Origin: Escherichia coli
GTDB taxonomy: Bacteria > Pseudomonadota > Gammaproteobacteria > Enterobacterales > Enterobacteriaceae
Length of the DNA: 64,000 nucleotides
Assembly (NCBI RefSeq): GCF_050320075.1
Contig: NZ_CP190018.1
Reading direction: 5' to 3' (one strand)
The translations under genes were made by a program, and so were the position numbers. Under the pieces are notes generated by a model, which ran no database searches, was not told where the DNA came from, and worked only from the letters and a program-made list of their open reading frames with translations. Numbering within the stretch: position 1 is the first letter of the stretch; every line of letters starts with the position of its first letter. Positions 11,560-59,685 of this stretch are shown here, piece by piece.

Positions 11560-14500
11560 ATGAATAAGAAATTTAAATATAAGAAATCGCTTTTAGCGGC
11601 TATTTTGAGCGCAACCCTGTTAGCCGGTTGTGATGGCGGTGGTTCCGGATCTTCCTCCGATACGCCGCCTGTAGATTCTGGAACAGGGTCTTTGCCGGAA
11701 GTGAAACCTGATCCAACACCAAACCCGGAGCCGACGCCTGAGCCAACGCCGGACCCAGAACCTACGCCGGAACCGACACCTGATCCTGAGCCAACACCAG
11801 AACCGGAGCCAGAACCTGTTCCTACGAAAACGGGTTATCTGACCCTGGGCGGAAGCCAGCGGATAACTGGTGCTACTTGTAATGGTGAATCCAGCGATGG
11901 CTTTACCTTTACGCCAGGCGACAAAGTCACCTGTGTGGCAGGGAACAACACGACAATTGCTACCTTCGACACCCAGTCAGAAGCTGCGCGTAGCCTGCGT
12001 GCGGTTGAAAAAGTGTCGTTTAGTCTTGAGGATGCGCAAGAACTGGTGGCTTCCGATGACAAGAAAAGCAATGCGGTTTCGCTGGTAACGTCCAGTAACA
12101 GCTGTCCGGCGAATACAGAACAGGTTTGCCTGACGTTCTCCTCTGTGATCGAGAGTAAACGTTTCGACTCACTGTATAAGCAAATCGATCTGGCACCGGA
12201 AGAGTTCAAAAAGCTGGTCAATGAAGAGGTGGAAAACAATGCTGCGACCGATAAAGCGCCATCCACTCATACCTCACCGGTTGTGCCTGTCACCACGCCG
12301 GGAACAAAACCGGATCTGAACGCTTCCTTCGTGTCGGCTAACGCGGAACAGTTTTATCAGTATCAACCTTCGGAAATCATTCTCTCCGAAGGCCGACTGG
12401 TCGATAGCCAGGGATATGGTGTTGCTGGCGTCAACTACTACACCAATTCAGGCCGTGGCGTGACAGGGGAAAATGGTGAATTTTCCTTTAGCTGGGGCGA
12501 AACCATCTCCTTTGGTATCGATACCTTTGAACTGGGCTCAGTGCGCGGCAATAAGTCGACCATTGCATTGACTGAACTGGGTGATGAAGTTCGCGGGGCG
12601 AATATTGATCAGCTTATTCATCGCTATTCGACGACCGGGCAAAATAATACCCGTGTTGTTCCGGACGATGTACGCAAGGTCTTTGCCGAATATCCCAACG
12701 TGATCAACGAGATTATCAATCTCTCGTTATCCAACGGTGCGACGCTGGATGAAGGTGAGCAAGTTGTTAATCTGCCAAACGAATTTATTGAGCAGTTTAA
12801 GACGGGTCAAGCCAAAGAGATCGATACCGCAATCTGTGCGAAAACTGGCGGTTGCAACCAGGCACGCTGGTTCTCGCTGACGACGCGCAATGTTAATGAC
12901 GGCCAGATTCAGGGCGTTATCAACAAGCTGTGGGGCGTGGATACAAGTTACAAATCTGTCAGCAAGTTCCATGTATTCCATGACTCCACCAACTTCTATG
13001 GCAGCACCGGTAATGCGCGCGGTCAGGCGGTGGTGAATATCTCTAACGCGGCCTTCCCGATTCTGATGGCGCGTAATGATAAAAACTACTGGCTGGCCTT
13101 CGGCGAGAAACGCGCCTGGGATAAAAACGAGCTGGCGTACATTACGGAAGCGCCTTCTCTTGTTGAGCCGGAAAACGTTACGCGCGATACCGCCACCTTT
13201 AACCTGCCGTTTATTTCGCTGGGGCAAGTCGGTGAGGGCAAACTGATGGTTATCGGTAACCCGCACTACAACAGCATTTTGCGTTGTCCGAACGGTTACA
13301 GCTGGAACGGGGGCGTTAATAAAGACGGGCAGTGTACGCTCAGCGGTGATTCAGATGACATGAAGCACTTCATGCAGAACGTACTGCGCTATCTGTCCGA
13401 CGATAAATGGACTCCGGACGCGAAAGCCAGCATGACCGTAGGCACCAACCTGGATACTGTCTATTTCAAACGTCATGGTCAGGTTACAGGAAATAGCGCT
13501 GAGTTCGGCTTTCATCCGGATTTTGCGGGTATCTCTGTTGAGCATTTAAGTAGCTATGGCGATCTCGACCCGCAGGAAATGCCGCTGCTGATCCTCAACG
13601 GCTTTGAGTATGTGACTCAGGTTGGTAACGATCCTTATGCAATCCCGCTGCGAGCAGATACCAGCAAACCGAAGCTGACTCAGCAGGATGTGACCGATCT
13701 GATCGCCTATCTGAACAAAGGTGGATCGGTGCTGATCATGGAAAACGTGATGAGCAATCTTAAGGAAGAGAGCGCGTCTGGCTTTGTACGTCTGCTTGAT
13801 GCCGCAGGTCTGTCGATGGCACTGAACAAGTCGGTAGTAAATAACGATCCGCAAGGGTATCCGAACCGCGTTCGTCAGCAGCGCGCAACGGGCATTTGGG
13901 TCTATGAACGTTATCCTGCCGTAGATGGTGCGCTGCCGTACACCATCGATAGTAAGACAGGGGAAGTTAAGTGGAAATATCAGGTAGAAAACAAACCTGA
14001 TGACAAACCGAAGCTGGAAGTTGCCAGCTGGCTGGAAGATGTAGATGGCAAACAGGAAACGCGTTATGCCTTTATTGATGAGGCCGATCATAAAACAGAG
14101 GATTCTCTGAAGGCTGCGAAGGCAAAAATCTTTGAGAAGTTTCCTGGATTAAAGGAGTGTAAGGACCCAACTTACCACTACGAGGTCAACTGTCTGGAAT
14201 ATCGTCCTGGCACGGGGGTTCCGGTTACTGGTGGCATGTATGTTCCACAGTATACGCAACTAAGCCTTAACGCCGACACGGCAAAAGCGATGGTGCAGGC
14301 TGCGGATTTAGGCACCAACATTCAGCGTCTGTATCAGCATGAGCTCTACTTCCGGACCAATGGTCGCAAAGGTGAGCGTCTGAGCAGCGTCGATCTGGAA
14401 CGTCTGTACCAGAACATGTCGGTCTGGCTGTGGAATAAAATTGAATATCGCTATGAAAACGACAAGGATGACGAGCTGGGCTTTAAAACGTTCACTGAGT

Positions 14501-28980: not shown

Positions 28981-29034
28981 TTAATTCTTTAATTCTTTAA
29001 TTCTTTAATTCTTTAATTCTTTAATTCTTTAATT
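28981..29034. repeat. 8-bp microsatellite (TTAATTCT), about 6.5 copies.
   Basis: Read directly from the sequence. It spans the stop codon of the 388-aa ORF; on the minus strand it reads AAAGAATT repeated. Confidence 0.95.
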
Positions 29035-38686: not shown

Positions 38687-39423
38687 GCGTTTTCAGCCAG
38701 TTCCTGTGCCATCAGGGCGCGCACTTTTTCCAGGCATGCTGGGGTGTCGACGCCCGGACCGGTTGCGGCAACCTCAAATGTGCGGATGTTGATCCCCGCG
38801 CTCATCAACCGCAGCTGCTCCAGTGATTCTGCCTGCTCCTGCATGGACTCCGGTAACTGGCTGTAGTTTTGCAGCACATCGCGACGATAAGCGTAAATAC
38901 CAACGTGTTTCAGGTAGCGCGCTTTTTCAGCATTACGCGGATACGGAATAGGCGAACGGCTGAAATAAAGCGCATCCTGGCGGGTATTTACCACCACTTT
39001 TACCGTGCTTGGCTCGGTCGCTTCTTCGGCAGAAATCGCGTGGCATAGCGTTGCCACTGGCAACGCGGGGTCATCACGCATTCCTTGTAACAGCGTTTCT
39101 ACATCCCGCGGGCGAATCATTGGTTCGTCGCCCTGCAGGTTAATGTAGATATCTGCCTCGACTTTATGCATCACCTCGACCAGCCGATCGGTGCCGGATT
39201 CATGATCGTTGCGCGTCATGATGGCTTTCCCGCCAAATGCCTGCACGGCCTGTTCAACACGCGGATCGTCTGTTGCCACCCAAACTTCCGCAACGCCCGC
39301 CACCTGTAACGCACGCTCGTAAACATGCTGGATCATCGGTTTACCAACAATATCGAGCAGTGGCTTACCCGGCAGACGCGATGAGCCATAACGAGCCGGG
39401 ATGACAATAACAGCTTTGCTCAT
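38683..39423 (-). CDS. kpsU: CMP-Kdo synthetase KpsU.
   Basis: 246 aa beginning [22 protein letters not shown]; a KdsB paralogue. Confidence 0.9.
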
Positions 39424-53452: not shown

Positions 53453-53670
53453 AACTGAAGATGCAGGCAATGGACGGCCCGGTGATTATAGAAAGTAGTG
53501 ATGTGACACAGTTTTACCCTGACCATGAAAGTGGCGGGGAACTCACAGCTGTTGAGTACCTTGCTGACGGGGGAAGAATCACCGCGAGGGTGAGGCACTC
53601 TTTTTATCAGGTTGCTGCGGCACTTGCCGGGGCATGGCGTGCGGATGATGCGTCAAAAAGCGGTGGGTGA
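53449..53670 (+). CDS. Hypothetical small protein.
   Basis: 73 aa with ATGA coupling. Confidence 0.45.
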   Translation: MKLKMQAMDGPVIIESSDVTQFYPDHESGGELTAVEYLADGGRITARVRHSFYQVAAALAGAWRADDASKSGG

Positions 53671-53930
53671 GGACTGTGCCGGAATGAGTGTCTGTTCCGA
53701 AGCTGCTGAGCCGCGACATAAATTTTTTATGTTGCGGTGAAGCAGCCGACAAACGAAGAGCGTCAGCGTATCAACAGTTAAGGAAAATATCTTCTGAAGC
53801 CGGACGCGACAGTCAGTCCGGTGGTGCTCGTGTGGTGAAGTGTTTAGCCTGCATCTTTGACAGGGTTCAGTTATAAGCATTTCGGAAACCGTTCCCCGGC
53901 GCAGTCTGCCGGGATTTAAGGAGTTTATTT

Positions 53931-55196
53931 ATGGCGCTACCTGCAGAAAGCCTTATTGCGCATACGCTCAGAAAAATGAAGGCCAGCATGGCAGAGAAAG
54001 CCAGTCGTGAGGACGGGAGGATACGCAGTGGGCTGTTGTTTACCGGCAATGTTCACGATTCGTATCCCCGCAGGCTGTTGCTGGATACGCGCCTTTCTCC
54101 CCTGGATAAAACTGCGTGGATGATGATTCGTCTGCATGCCCTGAATAATGAGGGCGCAGTCTTTCCGACGTACGATGAACTGCAGTTACAACTGGCATCT
54201 CCCGGCTGCGGGAAGGCGTCCCGTGAAACAGTGAGCCGTGTGCTGACAATGCTGCGGCTTACGGGCTGGCTGAGTCTGTGTAAGCGGGTCAGGGATGAAA
54301 AAGGGCGGGTCCGGGGGAATATTTACGCCCTGCATGATGAGCCACTGACCTGCTGTGATGCAGAAAAGTTTGACCCACGATACCTGGATATGGTTCTGGA
54401 TACTGTGAGCAGGAGCCGGAACAAGACAATCCGGCACACAGCCAGTGAAGTGCTCAGCGATATCAAAAATGAGCCCGGTATGCGGCATTACCACAGCCAT
54501 ATCACTCTGTTTGAATCGCGTATGGGGGCTGCACAGACGCCGGTTCAGCTGGCGGCGCGTCAGCGGGTGAACCCGATGGTGAATGAAAACACAGGCAGAG
54601 AGAGTGGTTCGGATTCCGTACATACCCCTGCACCTGTCGTGCAGGTAAACGAACTCAGTGATCCATTAATCGAACTCAGTGAAAAACAGGAAATGAGCCC
54701 ACTCAGTTCGGATTCCGTACCACCTGGAAAATCAGCAACTTATCACTCAGTTCGGAAAACGAACAATTACGTACGTAATATCACACACAGTGTGATTAAA
54801 AATACGTACGTATTGCCTGAGTCGGTGAAATCGCAAATCAGCGCAGAAGACACGGACATGCTGACAAAACAACTGCAGGCATTGCCGGAAGAACTGGCAG
54901 GTAGTGTGCTGAGCAGCCTGTCACAGATGCTCAGCAAAAACACGCTCCAGAATCCGGTTGGCTGGATGCTGGCTGTGATGAAACGTGCGCGTGAGGGGCG
55001 TTTTAATACGCCGGATATGTCCGTGCATGAATCCCGGTCGCCAGCCCGTGCACCATATCAGCCAGTGTACAACCGTGATGAACGTGAACGTCGTCGCGGG
55101 AAAGTGGCGTCACCTGAAACGGTGAGCAACATTGTCGCAGAATTCCGGGCCAGCCTGAAACGTGCAAATGCTGCCCGTCTGGCGGCGCGTGTTTGA
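53931..55196 (+). CDS. Winged-helix Rep-like island protein. From memory of NCBI naming it may be the 'STY4528 family pathogenicity island replication protein'.
   Basis: 421 aa. LSPLDKTAWMMIRLHALNNEGAVFPTYDELQLQLASPGCGKASRETVSRVLTMLRLTGWLSL has a wHTH pattern. The stop codon abuts the 36-bp repeat array. Confidence 0.6.
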   Translation: MALPAESLIAHTLRKMKASMAEKASREDGRIRSGLLFTGNVHDSYPRRLLLDTRLSPLDKTAWMMIRLHALNNEGAVFPTYDELQLQLASPGCGKASRETVSRVLTMLRLTGWLSLCKRVRDEKGRVRGNIYALHDEPLTCCDAEKFDPRYLDMVLDTVSRSRNKTIRHTASEVLSDIKNEPGMRHYHSHITLFESRMGAAQTPVQLAARQRVNPMVNENTGRESGSDSVHTPAPVVQVNELSDPLIELSEKQEMSPLSSDSVPPGKSATYHSVRKTNNYVRNITHSVIKNTYVLPESVKSQISAEDTDMLTKQLQALPEELAGSVLSSLSQMLSKNTLQNPVGWMLAVMKRAREGRFNTPDMSVHESRSPARAPYQPVYNRDERERRRGKVASPETVSNIVAEFRASLKRANAARLAARV

Positions 55197-55197
55197 T

Positions 55198-56130
55198 GTT
55201 AAAAATCACACGGTGTTGCCAGTGGCAACAGCGATTAAAAAATGTACGGTGTTGCCAGTGGCAACAGTGGTTAAAAAATGTGCGGTGTTGCCAGTGGCAA
55301 CAGTGGTTAAAAAATGTGCGGTGTTGCCAGTGGCAACAGTGGTTAAAAAGTGTACGGTGTTGCCAGTGGCAACAGTGGTTAAAAAATATCCGGTGTTGCC
55401 AGTGGCAACAGTGGTTAAAAAATATCCGGTGTTGCCAGTGGCAACAGTGATTAAAAATCGCGCGGTGTTGCCAGAGGCAACAGTGGTTAAAAAGTGTGCG
55501 GTGTTGCCAGTGGCAACAGTGGTTAAAAAGTGTACGGTGTTGCCAGTGGCAACAGTGGTTAAAAAATGTGCGGTGTTGCCAGTGGCAACAGTGGTTAAAA
55601 AGTGTGCGGTGTTGCCAGTGGCAACAGTGGTTAAAAAATGTGCGGTGTTGCCAGAGGCAACAGTGGTTAAAAAGTGTACGGTGTTGCCAGTGGCAACAGT
55701 GGTTAAGAAATATACGGTGTTGCCAGTGGCAACAGTGGTTAAAAAGTGTGCGGTGTTGCCAGTGGCAACAGTGGTTAAAAAGTGTACGGTGTTGCCAGTG
55801 GCAACAGTGGTTAAAAAATGTGCGGTGTTGCCAGTGGCAACAGTGGTTAAAAAGCGTGCGGTGTTGCCAGTGGCAACGGTGGTTAAAAAATGTGCGGTGT
55901 TGCCAGTGGCAACAGTGGTTAAAAAGTGTACGGTGTTGCCAGTGGCAACAGTGGTTAAGAAATATACGGTGTTGCCAGTGGCAACAGTGATTAAAAATTG
56001 CGCGGTGTTGCCAGAGGCAACAGTGGTTAAAAAGTGTGCGGTGTTGCCAGTGGCAATAGTGATTAAAAATTGTACGGTGTTGGCAGTGCCAACAGTGATT
56101 AAAAATTGTACTGAGTTGGCACTGCCAACA
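55198..56130. repeat. Array of 26 tandem 36-bp repeats, each with a 7-bp inverted repeat core. It is a candidate centromere (sopC-like) or iteron origin.
   Basis: Unit GGTGTTGCCAGTGGCAACAGTGGTTAAAAARTGTRC with an exact 36-bp register starting at 55212. The core is TGTTGCCA-G-TGGCAACA. See findings. Confidence 0.95.
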
Positions 56131-56234
56131 TGACGTAATTTCAGTCATTCCTTTTTTTATTTTTGATTGTCAGATCTCCGTCTGCAGGCTGACTATTTCA
56201 GCCCGATATCCTTTTCTTTTGCCGGAGATATAAC

Positions 56235-56960
56235 ATGTCTGAAGAACAAATGAAGGAACCCGCATCCCGTCGTGTAGGTGCGCTTACTTCACCAGTGAAT
56301 ATCGAGTTGCACTCCCGTTATGCAATCATGCTGTGGGAAGGGAGACGAGGCACGAAAAGTAAAAGTGCTGAAGATCGCAGGGCAGCGAAAATAATGAGTA
56401 TGCCGGAAGCTATTAAGATGACTGGCGGCCTCTACAGAGATTCTCTTGCTGATAATCCCTATGCGGATGAAACGATGTGGAAAGTTGAAAATGCGATTGT
56501 TGAGGCAACCGATAAAATTAATGCTGAAGTTCGTGTACTTGAAGGGATCCTCAGAAATATTCCGTCAGTGATCACTGTCCGGGATGCTCTTTCTCGTTCT
56601 CCTGTCGATATTGGGGTTTTCAGCCGCTCTCCTCTGGGCTACCGCTGTGTATGGCTTCTTGTCGGGTATGATCAGCTTGCATTAAAAACGTTTCAGGCAG
56701 CACATCTGGGGCTTATTTCACGAAACAGGCGTGATGAGTTGTTGTCTTCTGGTGCGCATCTTATCCGCAAAATTTACGGTATTCTGCAGGGGTATCGCAC
56801 TATGGCGGTAACTCGGGATGATATTGAGAATAAAACAGAAAAGGCAGAGAAAGCTATTGCCCGTTATGGTATGCCTCATGATGATATTCTATCCGGTAAG
56901 CTCAGATCTTCATTTTCTCCGCCCCTGAACCGTAAGTCCCGTGATGCATCCCGGCAATGA
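56235..56960 (+). CDS. Conserved-looking ICE protein of unknown function.
   Basis: 241-aa ORF between the repeat array and topB. It is followed by a GAGGAG RBS for topB. Confidence 0.6.
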   Translation: MSEEQMKEPASRRVGALTSPVNIELHSRYAIMLWEGRRGTKSKSAEDRRAAKIMSMPEAIKMTGGLYRDSLADNPYADETMWKVENAIVEATDKINAEVRVLEGILRNIPSVITVRDALSRSPVDIGVFSRSPLGYRCVWLLVGYDQLALKTFQAAHLGLISRNRRDELLSSGAHLIRKIYGILQGYRTMAVTRDDIENKTEKAEKAIARYGMPHDDILSGKLRSSFSPPLNRKSRDASRQ

Positions 56961-59314: not shown

Positions 59315-59472
59315 CAGCCAACCAATCTCCCGGTGGTCTGAGAGGGAGGCTTACGCGACCACACTGTCATCTTCGGATGACCAGCCAATGTTCCAGCAGT
59401 CTGAGAGGAGCGCCTTCGGGTGACTGCCAGCCAATGTTTCAGCGATCTGAGAGAAACGCCTTCGGGTGATTG
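59315..59472 (+). ncRNA. Three tandem pseudoknot units, a STAXI-like structured RNA or ssDNA motif.
   Basis: The units start at 59315, 59381 and 59427. Each has two interleaved stems with compensatory changes between units (details in findings). The context, between topoisomerase and SSB genes, fits the published STAXI description. Confidence 0.6.
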
Positions 59473-59685
59473 CAATATCCTCGTAGCCTGAAAGGGGATG
59501 CCTTTATGGCGGTACATCCGTTTAGCCTCTGGGAACGGATATCACCACTGGTGATTGAGGTACGTTTAACTGCACAGACAGCCGGAAATTCAGCTGATTC
59601 CGGCATCCCCGACGGGAACTATCACTCCCGTCAGGGCTGGTGATGTTCTCCGTCATATCTTTTTTTACTCCATGGAGAAATCATC

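Follow-up and report, generated by a model that had tools for sequence, protein, structure and literature searches.

The closest described relative of the system considered here is that of ICEclc, an integrative and conjugative element (ICE) in which the protein BisD binds two odd palindromes (bisS) located in genes just downstream of orf96323 (Antar et al. 2025, PMC12409273). BisD hydrolyzes cytidine triphosphate (CTP), spreads ∼50 kb along the element and, together with BisC, a DUF2857 protein, activates transfer promoters; it is mainly a sliding transcription co-activator (PMC12409273). A GTTCGGAtTCCGAAC-type dyad inside orf96323 itself is not bound by BisD, and pKLC102-type repeats are not mentioned in that study (PMC12409273). 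Two genes, orf95213 and inrR, follow orf96323. Here we consider an ICE of Escherichia coli that lies in a 64,000-nucleotide stretch of contig NZ_CP190018.1 (assembly GCF_050320075.1), referred to below as the window. It carries 26 tandem copies of a 36-bp palindrome-bearing repeat, for which a first-pass annotation, made from the letters alone, had proposed a role as an ICE centromere or an iteron origin. Our reading, to which we assign a probability of about 0.7, is that the array is a non-coding row of parS/bisS-like dyads that serve as putative loading sites for the ParB-like (BisD-type) protein of the ICE. It represents a tandem-array form of an established class of site, parS/bisS, and is homologous to repeats earlier described as an origin of replication (oriV).

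The two elements belong to the same ICE superfamily and share the order parA ... parB-like gene, DUF2857/bisC gene, orf96323/STY4528 homologue, and sites. In both, odd-length palindromes lie downstream of the orf96323 homologue, and that gene in the window, termed rep-like below, shares an internal dyad of the GTTCGGAtTCCGAAC type with ICEclc. Set beside the window's protein by published description rather than by sequence, BisD has the same ParB N-terminal domain with GxxR and ENxxR motifs. Unlike ICEclc, the window has 26 tandem 17-bp dyads that recur every 36 bp and are separated by A-tract spacers. Only for ICEclc have binding, sliding, and activation been shown, the element of the window being known from its sequence.

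The first-pass annotation had likened the architecture to that of sopC of plasmid F, a comparison supported both by the tandem dyads and by their co-variation with the ParB-like protein (see below). In each case tandem direct repeats of about 40 bp hold a 16–17-bp inverted repeat that is, or in the window would be, read by the helix-turn-helix of a ParB-family dimer, and the element also codes for a Walker-type ParA. One sopC unit is enough for F, the extras being dispensable, which fits the variable copy number of the ICE arrays. The 12 units of 43 bp in sopC directly follow sopB, whereas the array of the window lies 5.6 kb from the parB-like gene and after another gene; furthermore, the ParB-like protein, unlike SopB, has an extra activator-type C-terminal domain and a BisC partner, and its role in partition is putative. 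KorB of RK2 provides a weaker parallel, as a ParB-family CTP-dependent clamp that is both a partition protein and a long-range transcription regulator acting at 13-bp palindromes. Its sites, OB, are 12 single ones dispersed among promoters and not in tandem, and KorB represses where BisD activates.

Repeats in the corresponding position of other islands have been interpreted in terms of replication. In PFGI-1 of Pseudomonas fluorescens, a putative oriV was placed immediately upstream of PFL_4669; its first half contains the palindrome CTGAGTTCGGAATCCGAACTCAGT four times, and its second half consists of four 46-bp direct repeats, each with a 21-bp inverted repeat, AGTGTTGTGGGCCACACCACT. Comparable iteron-like oriVs are said to exist in ICEHin1056, pKLC102, SPI-7, and PAPI-1, that of pKLC102 reportedly comprising 16 repeats of 57 bp. 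The 'oriV' repeats of PFGI-1, pKLC102, and ICEHin1056 are positional and sequence homologues of the array, lying immediately upstream of PFL_4669 with a core of the GTGTTG...CAACAC type. They differ from it in unit length and copy number, and they were read as an origin in the papers concerned.

The array and its counterparts in related islands

Tandem Repeats Finder reports a single strong array in the window (55211–56130; period 36, 25.6 copies, 91% matches, 0% indels, score 1462). Cut in 36-nt steps from 55212, this gives 26 head-to-tail units in register, each made up of a 17-bp dyad, TGTTGCCA-G-TGGCAACA, and an A-tract spacer, TTAAAAA. The exact 17-mer TGTTGCCAGTGGCAACA is present in 19 of the 26 units. 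CCAGAGG replaces the usual sequence in units 8, 13, and 23 (starting at 55464, 55644, and 56004), and single changes confined to one arm are seen in unit 19 (end ...CAACG) and unit 24 (end ...CAATA). Units 25 and 26 (56076 and 56112) read TGTTGGCAGTGCCAACA and GAGTTGGCACTGCCAACA, a reciprocal change from GCC/GGC to GGC/GCC. Repeat finding, unit listing, and pattern search therefore bear out the array of 26 units with a dyad in each, as well as the variant units and the reciprocal change in the last two, as they were first described. The statement that the array starts 2 nt after the stop of the rep-like gene holds only for a partial, spacer-like sequence, TGTTAAAAATCACAC; the first full unit begins 16 nt after the end of that open reading frame (ORF).

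With up to three mismatches allowed, the 17-mer is matched 53 times on the two strands of the window, against 0.21 expected, and no further dyad copy occurs across the following 20 kb of the ICE. The sole match outside the array, at 39049–39065 in the capsule-locus gene kdsB and outside the ICE, scores on both strands; this perfect dyad, CGTTGCCAGTGGCAACG, is two mismatches away from the array dyad and is probably due to chance. The GC fraction of the array is 0.43–0.48, and a short T-rich stretch follows it.

The period of 36 is a multiple of 3, open frames cross the array on both strands, and the NCBI annotation pipeline (PGAP) places a coding sequence on it ('hypothetical protein' WP_217330805.1, 55162–56133, plus strand). 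That this RefSeq ORF, of roughly 150–320 residues over the array, represents a genuine repeat protein is nonetheless a reading that can for practical purposes be set aside. Any stop-free unit of 36 bp yields such ORFs automatically, and the frame chosen by PGAP differs between strains, with homologous coding sequences of 157, 217, and 231 residues. The spacings of sites in relatives (97, 106, 109, 119, 158, and 250 bp) are not multiples of 3, the copy number ranges from 1 to 26, and the array ORF has no family match above low-complexity noise. The RefSeq 'hypothetical protein' is almost certainly a spurious gene call.

A scan of one genome per species yielded 80 loci with STY4528 homologues that are 45–62% identical to the query. 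Among the 76 non-redundant islands in which the gap could be read, most carry dyads starting within ∼100 bp of the STY4528 stop. Their common form is TG(T/C)TG-SS-NNN-SS-CA(A/G)CA followed by an A-tract, with two variable G/C-rich positions, a centre of 1–3 nt, and a mirror arm. A spacing of 36 bp is commonest, and multiples of it (72, about 108, and 252 bp) also occur. Typical islands have 1–4 sites, and the next largest array in the scan has 13; among close relatives in E. coli, arrays of 13, 18, and 18.6 units occur, the 26 of the window being the most seen. Copy number is evolutionarily labile, varying from 13 to 26 among near-identical E. coli islands. Comparison of homologous islands, which the first-pass annotation had suggested, shows in sum that the build, position, and symmetry of the dyad are kept and that the number of units is not.

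In a pKLC102-type plasmid from Stutzerimonas, the STY4528 gene is directly followed by two GGTGTTGCGGCCCGCAACACC dyads that lie 56 bp from each other. Elsewhere the sites are found away from rep. In two Pantoea loci (L048 and L050; 2531–2657), no array follows rep, and four 36-bp units with the same dyad are found within the parB-like gene, in the part that codes for the linker; a Dryocola locus (L016) has single sites at 1415 and 3889, in the parB-like gene and in the gap between bisC and rep. Because the sites in these three loci lie inside or beside the parB-like gene, they appear to stay with the parB-like module and not with rep. In other loci, dyads flank insertions of 2.7–3.3 kb between STY4528 and PFL_4669 (L037, at 5248 and 7990; L028, L033, L047, L058, L076, and L078), and accessory DNA seems to have entered the array region repeatedly. 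One locus of the scan, L002 (NZ_JBQPOM010000022, labelled as the Gram-positive 'Vagococcus sp.'), has an STY4528 match score equal to that of Salmonella enterica L003, so contamination or mislabelling is likely.

More than 15 symmetric dyad variants were found among the islands, the sequence varying and the symmetry being retained. In 92 units that were defined solely by their period and not selected for palindromy, the arms pair in 90.9% of cells compared with 75.8% after shuffling, and changes in both arms number 91 cells compared with 26. Co-variation is present in five of the eight dyad pairs and collapses in slid controls. The reciprocal changes had been taken in the first-pass annotation as an argument for selection on a dimer-binding site. 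That argument points in the right direction, but template switching at quasi-palindromes produces reciprocal arm changes as a mutational by-product and could yield them without selection. Because template switching alone could be responsible, the case for a protein-binding site is rested here on co-variation with the protein.

The concerted change of both arms, even among units within one array, would also suit a hairpin element, and the ICE is transferred as single-stranded DNA; in such a scheme, the dyads would act as stem-loops, either in single-stranded DNA during transfer (priming or a single-strand promoter) or in RNA. We regard this as very unlikely. The symmetry often extends to the centre, leaving a single base between 8-bp arms, and a hairpin could make no use of that. 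G-T wobble states are rare, and there is no Rfam match. The same template switching could explain the reciprocal changes, and the strong link between dyad bases and residues of the ParB-like protein would be unexpected for a pure hairpin signal.

Co-variation of the dyads with the ParB-like protein

In the ParB-like protein, a long linker, disordered, joins an N-terminal ParB domain to a conserved C-terminal one. The protein matches the NCBIfam model 'ParB family protein' and has no match to Pfam ParBc. Its predicted CTP-pocket motifs, GGNTR at residues 92–96 (GxxR) and ENEVR at 135–139 (ENxxR), are invariant in 18 homologues. Searches of the PDB by sequence with its N-domain and with the Rep-like protein (the STY4528-family product) gave no meaningful match. 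AlphaFold2 (AF2) models of the two proteins have an overall confidence (pLDDT) of 53–55, and what was used from them is local secondary structure in residues 140–200 of the ParB-like protein. There, helices 168–177 and 184–206 form a helix-turn-helix with local pLDDT of 69–85.

Every alignment column of BisD, BisC, Rep, and PFL_4669 was compared with dyad position 3 (T or C) across 56 non-redundant loci, the genes for the ParB-like protein, DUF2857, STY4528, and PFL_4669 all lying within the retrieved DNA in most loci. The top predictor was residue 184 of the ParB-like protein, with an accuracy of 0.90 and a bias-corrected normalized mutual information of 0.64, the runner-up scoring 0.31. Asn or Asp at this residue accompanies TGCTG...CAGCA dyads, and other residues accompany TGTTG...CAACA dyads, with at least seven independent co-switches on the N-domain tree. 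A second rule lies within the loop and helix start at 207–218 (SGLG-x211-PQ[VI]-x215), where C at dyad position 6 accompanies Arg211 if Arg215 is absent, and G accompanies a small residue 211 combined with Arg215; Arg215 is found in 16 of 17 G-type loci and in 3 of about 36 others. Association scans of dyad positions 7 and 8 gave only a clade-level, non-specific signal. Chromosomal ParB/Noc uses residue 173 to read an outer base and residue 201, 28 residues further on, to read position 6, a geometry that, by analogy, residues 184 and 211/215 match.

The Rep-like protein behaves quite differently. Its helix-turn-helix YDELQLQLASPGKGKASRETVSRVLLMLRITGWLS, with the recognition helix KASRETVSRVLLMLRITGWLS, is nearly invariant in the 80 loci, whereas the dyads of the same loci include TGTTGCC, TGTTGGC, TGCTGCC, TGTTGCG, TGTGCCC, and TGATTAG. 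In loci L006 and L011, the dyads differ although the Rep N-domains share 99.4% identity, their one substitution falling outside the helix-turn-helix.

A near-identical island in E. coli 181.1 (L088, NZ_CP059907) permits a closer comparison. Its array (11755–12225) has 13 units, ten of them of the TGTTGGCAGTGCCAACA type, with two GCC-type units near the end, whereas the window has 24 GCC-type units and two terminal ones of GGC type. The Rep-like proteins are 98% identical, with the winged helix unchanged. The ParB-like proteins are 97% identical, their sole differences in the region 200–230 being L209M, R211S, N215R, and S216A, and 12 of the 51 nucleotide differences in bisD are packed into codons 209–218, which points to the exchange of a short patch. 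Both arrays retain a few units of the opposite type, which could seed the switching of specificity.

The same pair of strains bears on the possibility that the array is a set of operators through which the PFL_4669/AcaB-family regulator controls its own promoter. The array ends ∼100 bp upstream of the PFL_4669 gene, its units resemble weak sigma-70 promoters, and in the recombinant loci L006 and L011, the array type travels with the downstream gene. PFL_4669 is, however, 100% identical in the window and in 181.1 (the same protein accession) despite GCC-type and GGC-type arrays, none of its columns comes close to BisD residue 184 in the association scan, and other islands have sites inside bisD. 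Together these leave self-regulation by PFL_4669 with a slimmer chance even than the hairpin. TprA and NdpA2 of PAPI-1 were also considered as array binders and rejected, TprA being a ribbon-helix-helix protein that acts at other promoters. With regard to the promoter-like sequences themselves, 9 of the 26 units (55216–55891, plus strand) fit the weak sigma-70 pattern TTGCCA-N16-AAAAAT, against 2.0 expected. The −35-like hexamer falls within the dyad, and binding of the dyad could gate transcription toward the PFL_4669 gene.

On the evidence of these alignments, the dyad sequence is co-evolving with residues 184, 211, and 215 of the ParB-like protein and not with the Rep-like protein, which would make the latter a neighbour of the array and not its specificity partner. 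Site specificity is probably set by the helix-turn-helix region of the cognate ParB-like protein on the same element. Of the two roles first proposed, centromere or iteron origin, the ParB-like, sopC-like one is favoured by the co-variation and the near-isogenic pair, and iterons bound by the Rep-like protein are not.

A mechanism can be proposed on this basis, drawing on homology with ICEclc BisD, chromosomal ParB, and RK2 KorB. Each dyad would be bound by a dimer of the BisD-like protein, with residue 184 reading the outer base pair and the arginine pair 211/215 reading the inner G/C pairs. Binding would trigger CTP-dependent closure of the clamp, and closed clamps would move off the sites, sliding to the right into the core operons of the ICE. 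There, with the DUF2857 (BisC-like) partner, they would switch on transfer genes at their promoters. Together with the ParA of the ICE, that complex may also serve to position the excised, replicating element or to partition it. Standing at the head of the rightward core operons, 26 tandem sites would form a high-capacity loading zone with a high rate of clamp loading.

Several observations weigh against the assignment of the array to the ParB-like protein. The structural links to ParB/Noc are weak (Foldseek E 0.1–0.2), and the overall confidence of the AF2 models is low. The sequence-profile link of the N-domain to KorB (8QA8), the sole solved structure found, is also weak (E 0.23). The bisS of ICEclc, GAGCTATCCCCnGGGGATAGCTC, is unrelated in sequence to the array dyad and is present as two dispersed 23-bp copies, in inrR and ssb; no ICEclc-like bisS, as a second class of palindrome, was found elsewhere in the ICE part of the window. 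Loci L017, L035, and L071 break the rule for residue 184 or for residue 215, L017 having one unit before the contig end. In locus L051, the helix is of the SASH type and the array of the GTGCCC type. More than one dyad type can be present in a single array, which means that the protein tolerates variants or that some units are unbound, and the conserved A-tract spacer is left unexplained by a model of ParB loading. Equivalent repeats, moreover, carry the label of a putative oriV in the literature, and the same DNA may conceivably have a part in replication; this is taken up below. As to L051, it can be set beside L041, also from Xenorhabdus, which has the same GTGCCC-type array, nearly the same Rep, and a ParB-like recognition helix SRSY in place of SASH. 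Either L051 is a recombinant with mismatched protein and site, or it marks a gap in the proposed code.

If the assignment to the BisD-type protein is right, the sequence and size of the array belong to the control logic of transfer and maintenance, and the old 'oriV' annotations need revising. The code predicts that R211S/N215R would exchange a preference for GCC for one for GGC, and it would provide a natural explanation for the finding that heterologous BisDC does not always activate related ICEs. As far as the literature could be searched, three of the points proposed here appear to be new: the assignment of the repeats to the BisD-type protein, the residue-to-base code, and the swap of specificity between near-identical E. 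coli islands. The matter extends beyond this strain, as the ICE family concerned (SPI-7, PAPI-1/pKLC102, ICEclc, SGI-4, and ICEHin1056) carries virulence, metal-resistance, and antibiotic-resistance genes across the Proteobacteria.

Replication and the element inside the rep-like gene

The strongest competing interpretation is that of an iteron-type oriV, in which binding of the adjacent STY4528 winged-helix protein to the repeats would initiate replication of the excised ICE or regulate it. The rep-like gene is followed directly by the array, the literature assigns putative oriVs to the equivalent repeats of pKLC102, PFGI-1, and ICEHin1056, and the module also encodes a DnaB-type helicase, a single-stranded DNA-binding protein (SSB), topoisomerase III, and the 'STY4534 replication protein'. 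Members of the family, found by a protein-mode search, have been deposited as circular 'plasmids' of 70–130 kb, some of them without a typed replicon. The layout, direct repeats adjoining an initiator-like winged-helix gene, also resembles that of P1 oriR/incA, F oriS, and R6K.

Against this stand, above all, the near-invariant Rep recognition helix in islands with different dyads, the divergent dyads of L006 and L011, and the flipped array type of 181.1 with its unchanged winged helix. The sites of L048, L050, and L016 do not adjoin rep, and the units are 36-bp repeats with dyads and not asymmetric 17–22-bp iterons. There is no cluster of DnaA boxes nearby, sites like TTATCCACA with at most one mismatch being absent from 53600–56400 and the nearest lying at 56761, within a gene; nor was an AT-rich unwinding element, as expected of an iteron origin, found beside the repeats. 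The oriV labels of the PFGI-1 and ICEHin1056 papers are sequence-based predictions. The Rep-like protein, with an N-terminal winged helix-turn-helix, a disordered linker, and a helical C terminus (AF2, low confidence), matches only NF040582, which NCBI names 'replication protein'; a Crp-type helix-turn-helix match is below threshold, it has no Pfam Rep family match, no PDB relative was found, and its role in replication is putative. We consider an iteron origin at the array improbable, and the first-pass suggestion of one bound by the adjacent Rep-like protein is not sustained, given that the Rep helix is invariant while the dyads vary and that a DnaA-box cluster is missing.

The rep gene itself contains a more plausible candidate target for the conserved Rep. 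Between 54591 and 54815, there are short dyads, GTTCGGATTCCGTAC, CGAACTCAGTGA, and CACTCAGTTCGGA, each present twice, and their motif recurs in PFGI-1 and ICEclc. Synonymous sites are unusually conserved over rep codons 221–290 (54591–54800), where the share of the major codon is 0.79–0.97, compared with 0.55–0.66 elsewhere, and the region codes for the linker that AF2 predicts to be disordered. Whether as the target of the invariant Rep-like helix or as the origin, this element has a stronger claim than the array. A second set of repeats in a linker-coding region recalls, by analogy, the layout of the ori of phage lambda inside gene O.

These strands can be joined into a wider proposal, which we advance tentatively and would not expect to hold in every part. 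The 'oriV' repeats of the pKLC102/SPI-7/PAPI-1 branch would be loading arrays for BisD-type clamps and not origins, recognized through a code that links residue 184 to position 3 and Arg211/Arg215 to position 6. The code would be exchanged between co-circulating islands as a gene patch of ∼30 bp together with the amplification of minority units that the array already contains, creating incompatibility or 'immunity' groups among near-identical ICEs. Replication would then truly start from the dyad cluster under synonymous constraint in the rep-like gene, arranged like lambda ori in gene O.

The host island and other features of the window

The window is 100% identical to the chromosome of E. 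coli YZLc1-3, and related DNA is present in 109 of 5,426 complete E. coli genomes, in every case in the chromosome. The carrier of the array is an ICE of the SPI-7/pKLC102/ICEclc family inserted at tRNA-Ser. Its left end comprises genes for ParA, a hypothetical protein, an SPI-7-type DnaB, the ParB-family protein, DUF2786, DUF2857, and small accessory proteins, followed by STY4528, the array, PFL_4669, topoisomerase III, STY4534, and SSB, and then by pil and tra genes. The BisDC-type order (ParA ... ParB-like, DUF2786, DUF2857, STY4528) is found in the window and in about 70 loci. ParA and the 549-residue ParB-like protein are located as the first-pass annotation had them (Table 1).

Table 1. 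Coordinates of the array and of associated features in the window
Feature	Position	Strand	Basis or remark
tRNA-Ser, left ICE junction	44528..44605	-	RefSeq annotation of identical E. coli locus
ParA-family ATPase, ICE left end adjoining tRNA-Ser, possible motor partner	44671..45549	+	Annotation, family scans
ParB-family protein, 549 aa, BisD-like, proposed array reader	47986..49635	+	TIGR03764, 383 bits
Codon 184 of parB-like gene	48535..48537	+	First recognition-helix residue in AF2 model
Codons 209-216 of parB-like gene, SGLG-R211-PQV-N215	48610..48633	+	Family table, strain 181.1
DUF2857 protein, BisC-like partner, weak FlhD similarity	50356..50934	+	Pfam PF11198, 5e-66
STY4528-family 'pathogenicity island replication protein', 421 aa	53931..55196	+	NF040582, 390 bits
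Candidate cis element within rep gene	54591..54815		Half-sites GTTCGGATTCCG / CGAACTCAGTGA / CACTCAGTTCGGA and 45-bp inverted repeat TACGTACGTAATATCACACACAGTGTGATTAAAAATACGTACGTA
Lead-in, partial and spacer-like, TGTTAAAAATCACAC	55197..55211		Between rep stop codon and first full unit; direct reading
Array of 26 × 36 bp	55212..56130		24 GCC/GGC-type dyads, final 2 GGC/GCC-type
PFL_4669/AcaB-family gene directly downstream of array	56235..56960	+	TIGR03761, 238 bits; Pfam PF08900

A megablast search of the array region against plasmids gave no match. About 30 PLSDB records are family 'plasmids', in addition to L082 (pSGI4, NZ_CP061046), L083 (pZDHY95-VIM-2), and L084 (pPant4); of these, pSGI4 has a 36-bp array of 11 units with mixed TGTTGGC...GCCAGCA dyads.

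Three further repeats were noted in the window. An inverted repeat with 21-nt arms around an A/T run (GCTGCTGAGCCGCGACATAAATTTTTTATGTTGCGGTGAAGCAGC) is located at 53702–53746, ∼190 bp upstream of the STY4528 start, and is terminator- or operator-like. At 59381–59473, between the genes for topoisomerase III and the STY4534 'ICE replication protein', the 46-bp unit CCAGCCAATGTTCCAGCAATCTGAGAGAAACGCCTTCGGGTGACTG occurs twice in tandem. Outside the ICE, at 28981–29034, the 8-bp sequence TTAATTCT forms a perfect tandem repeat of 6.8 copies.

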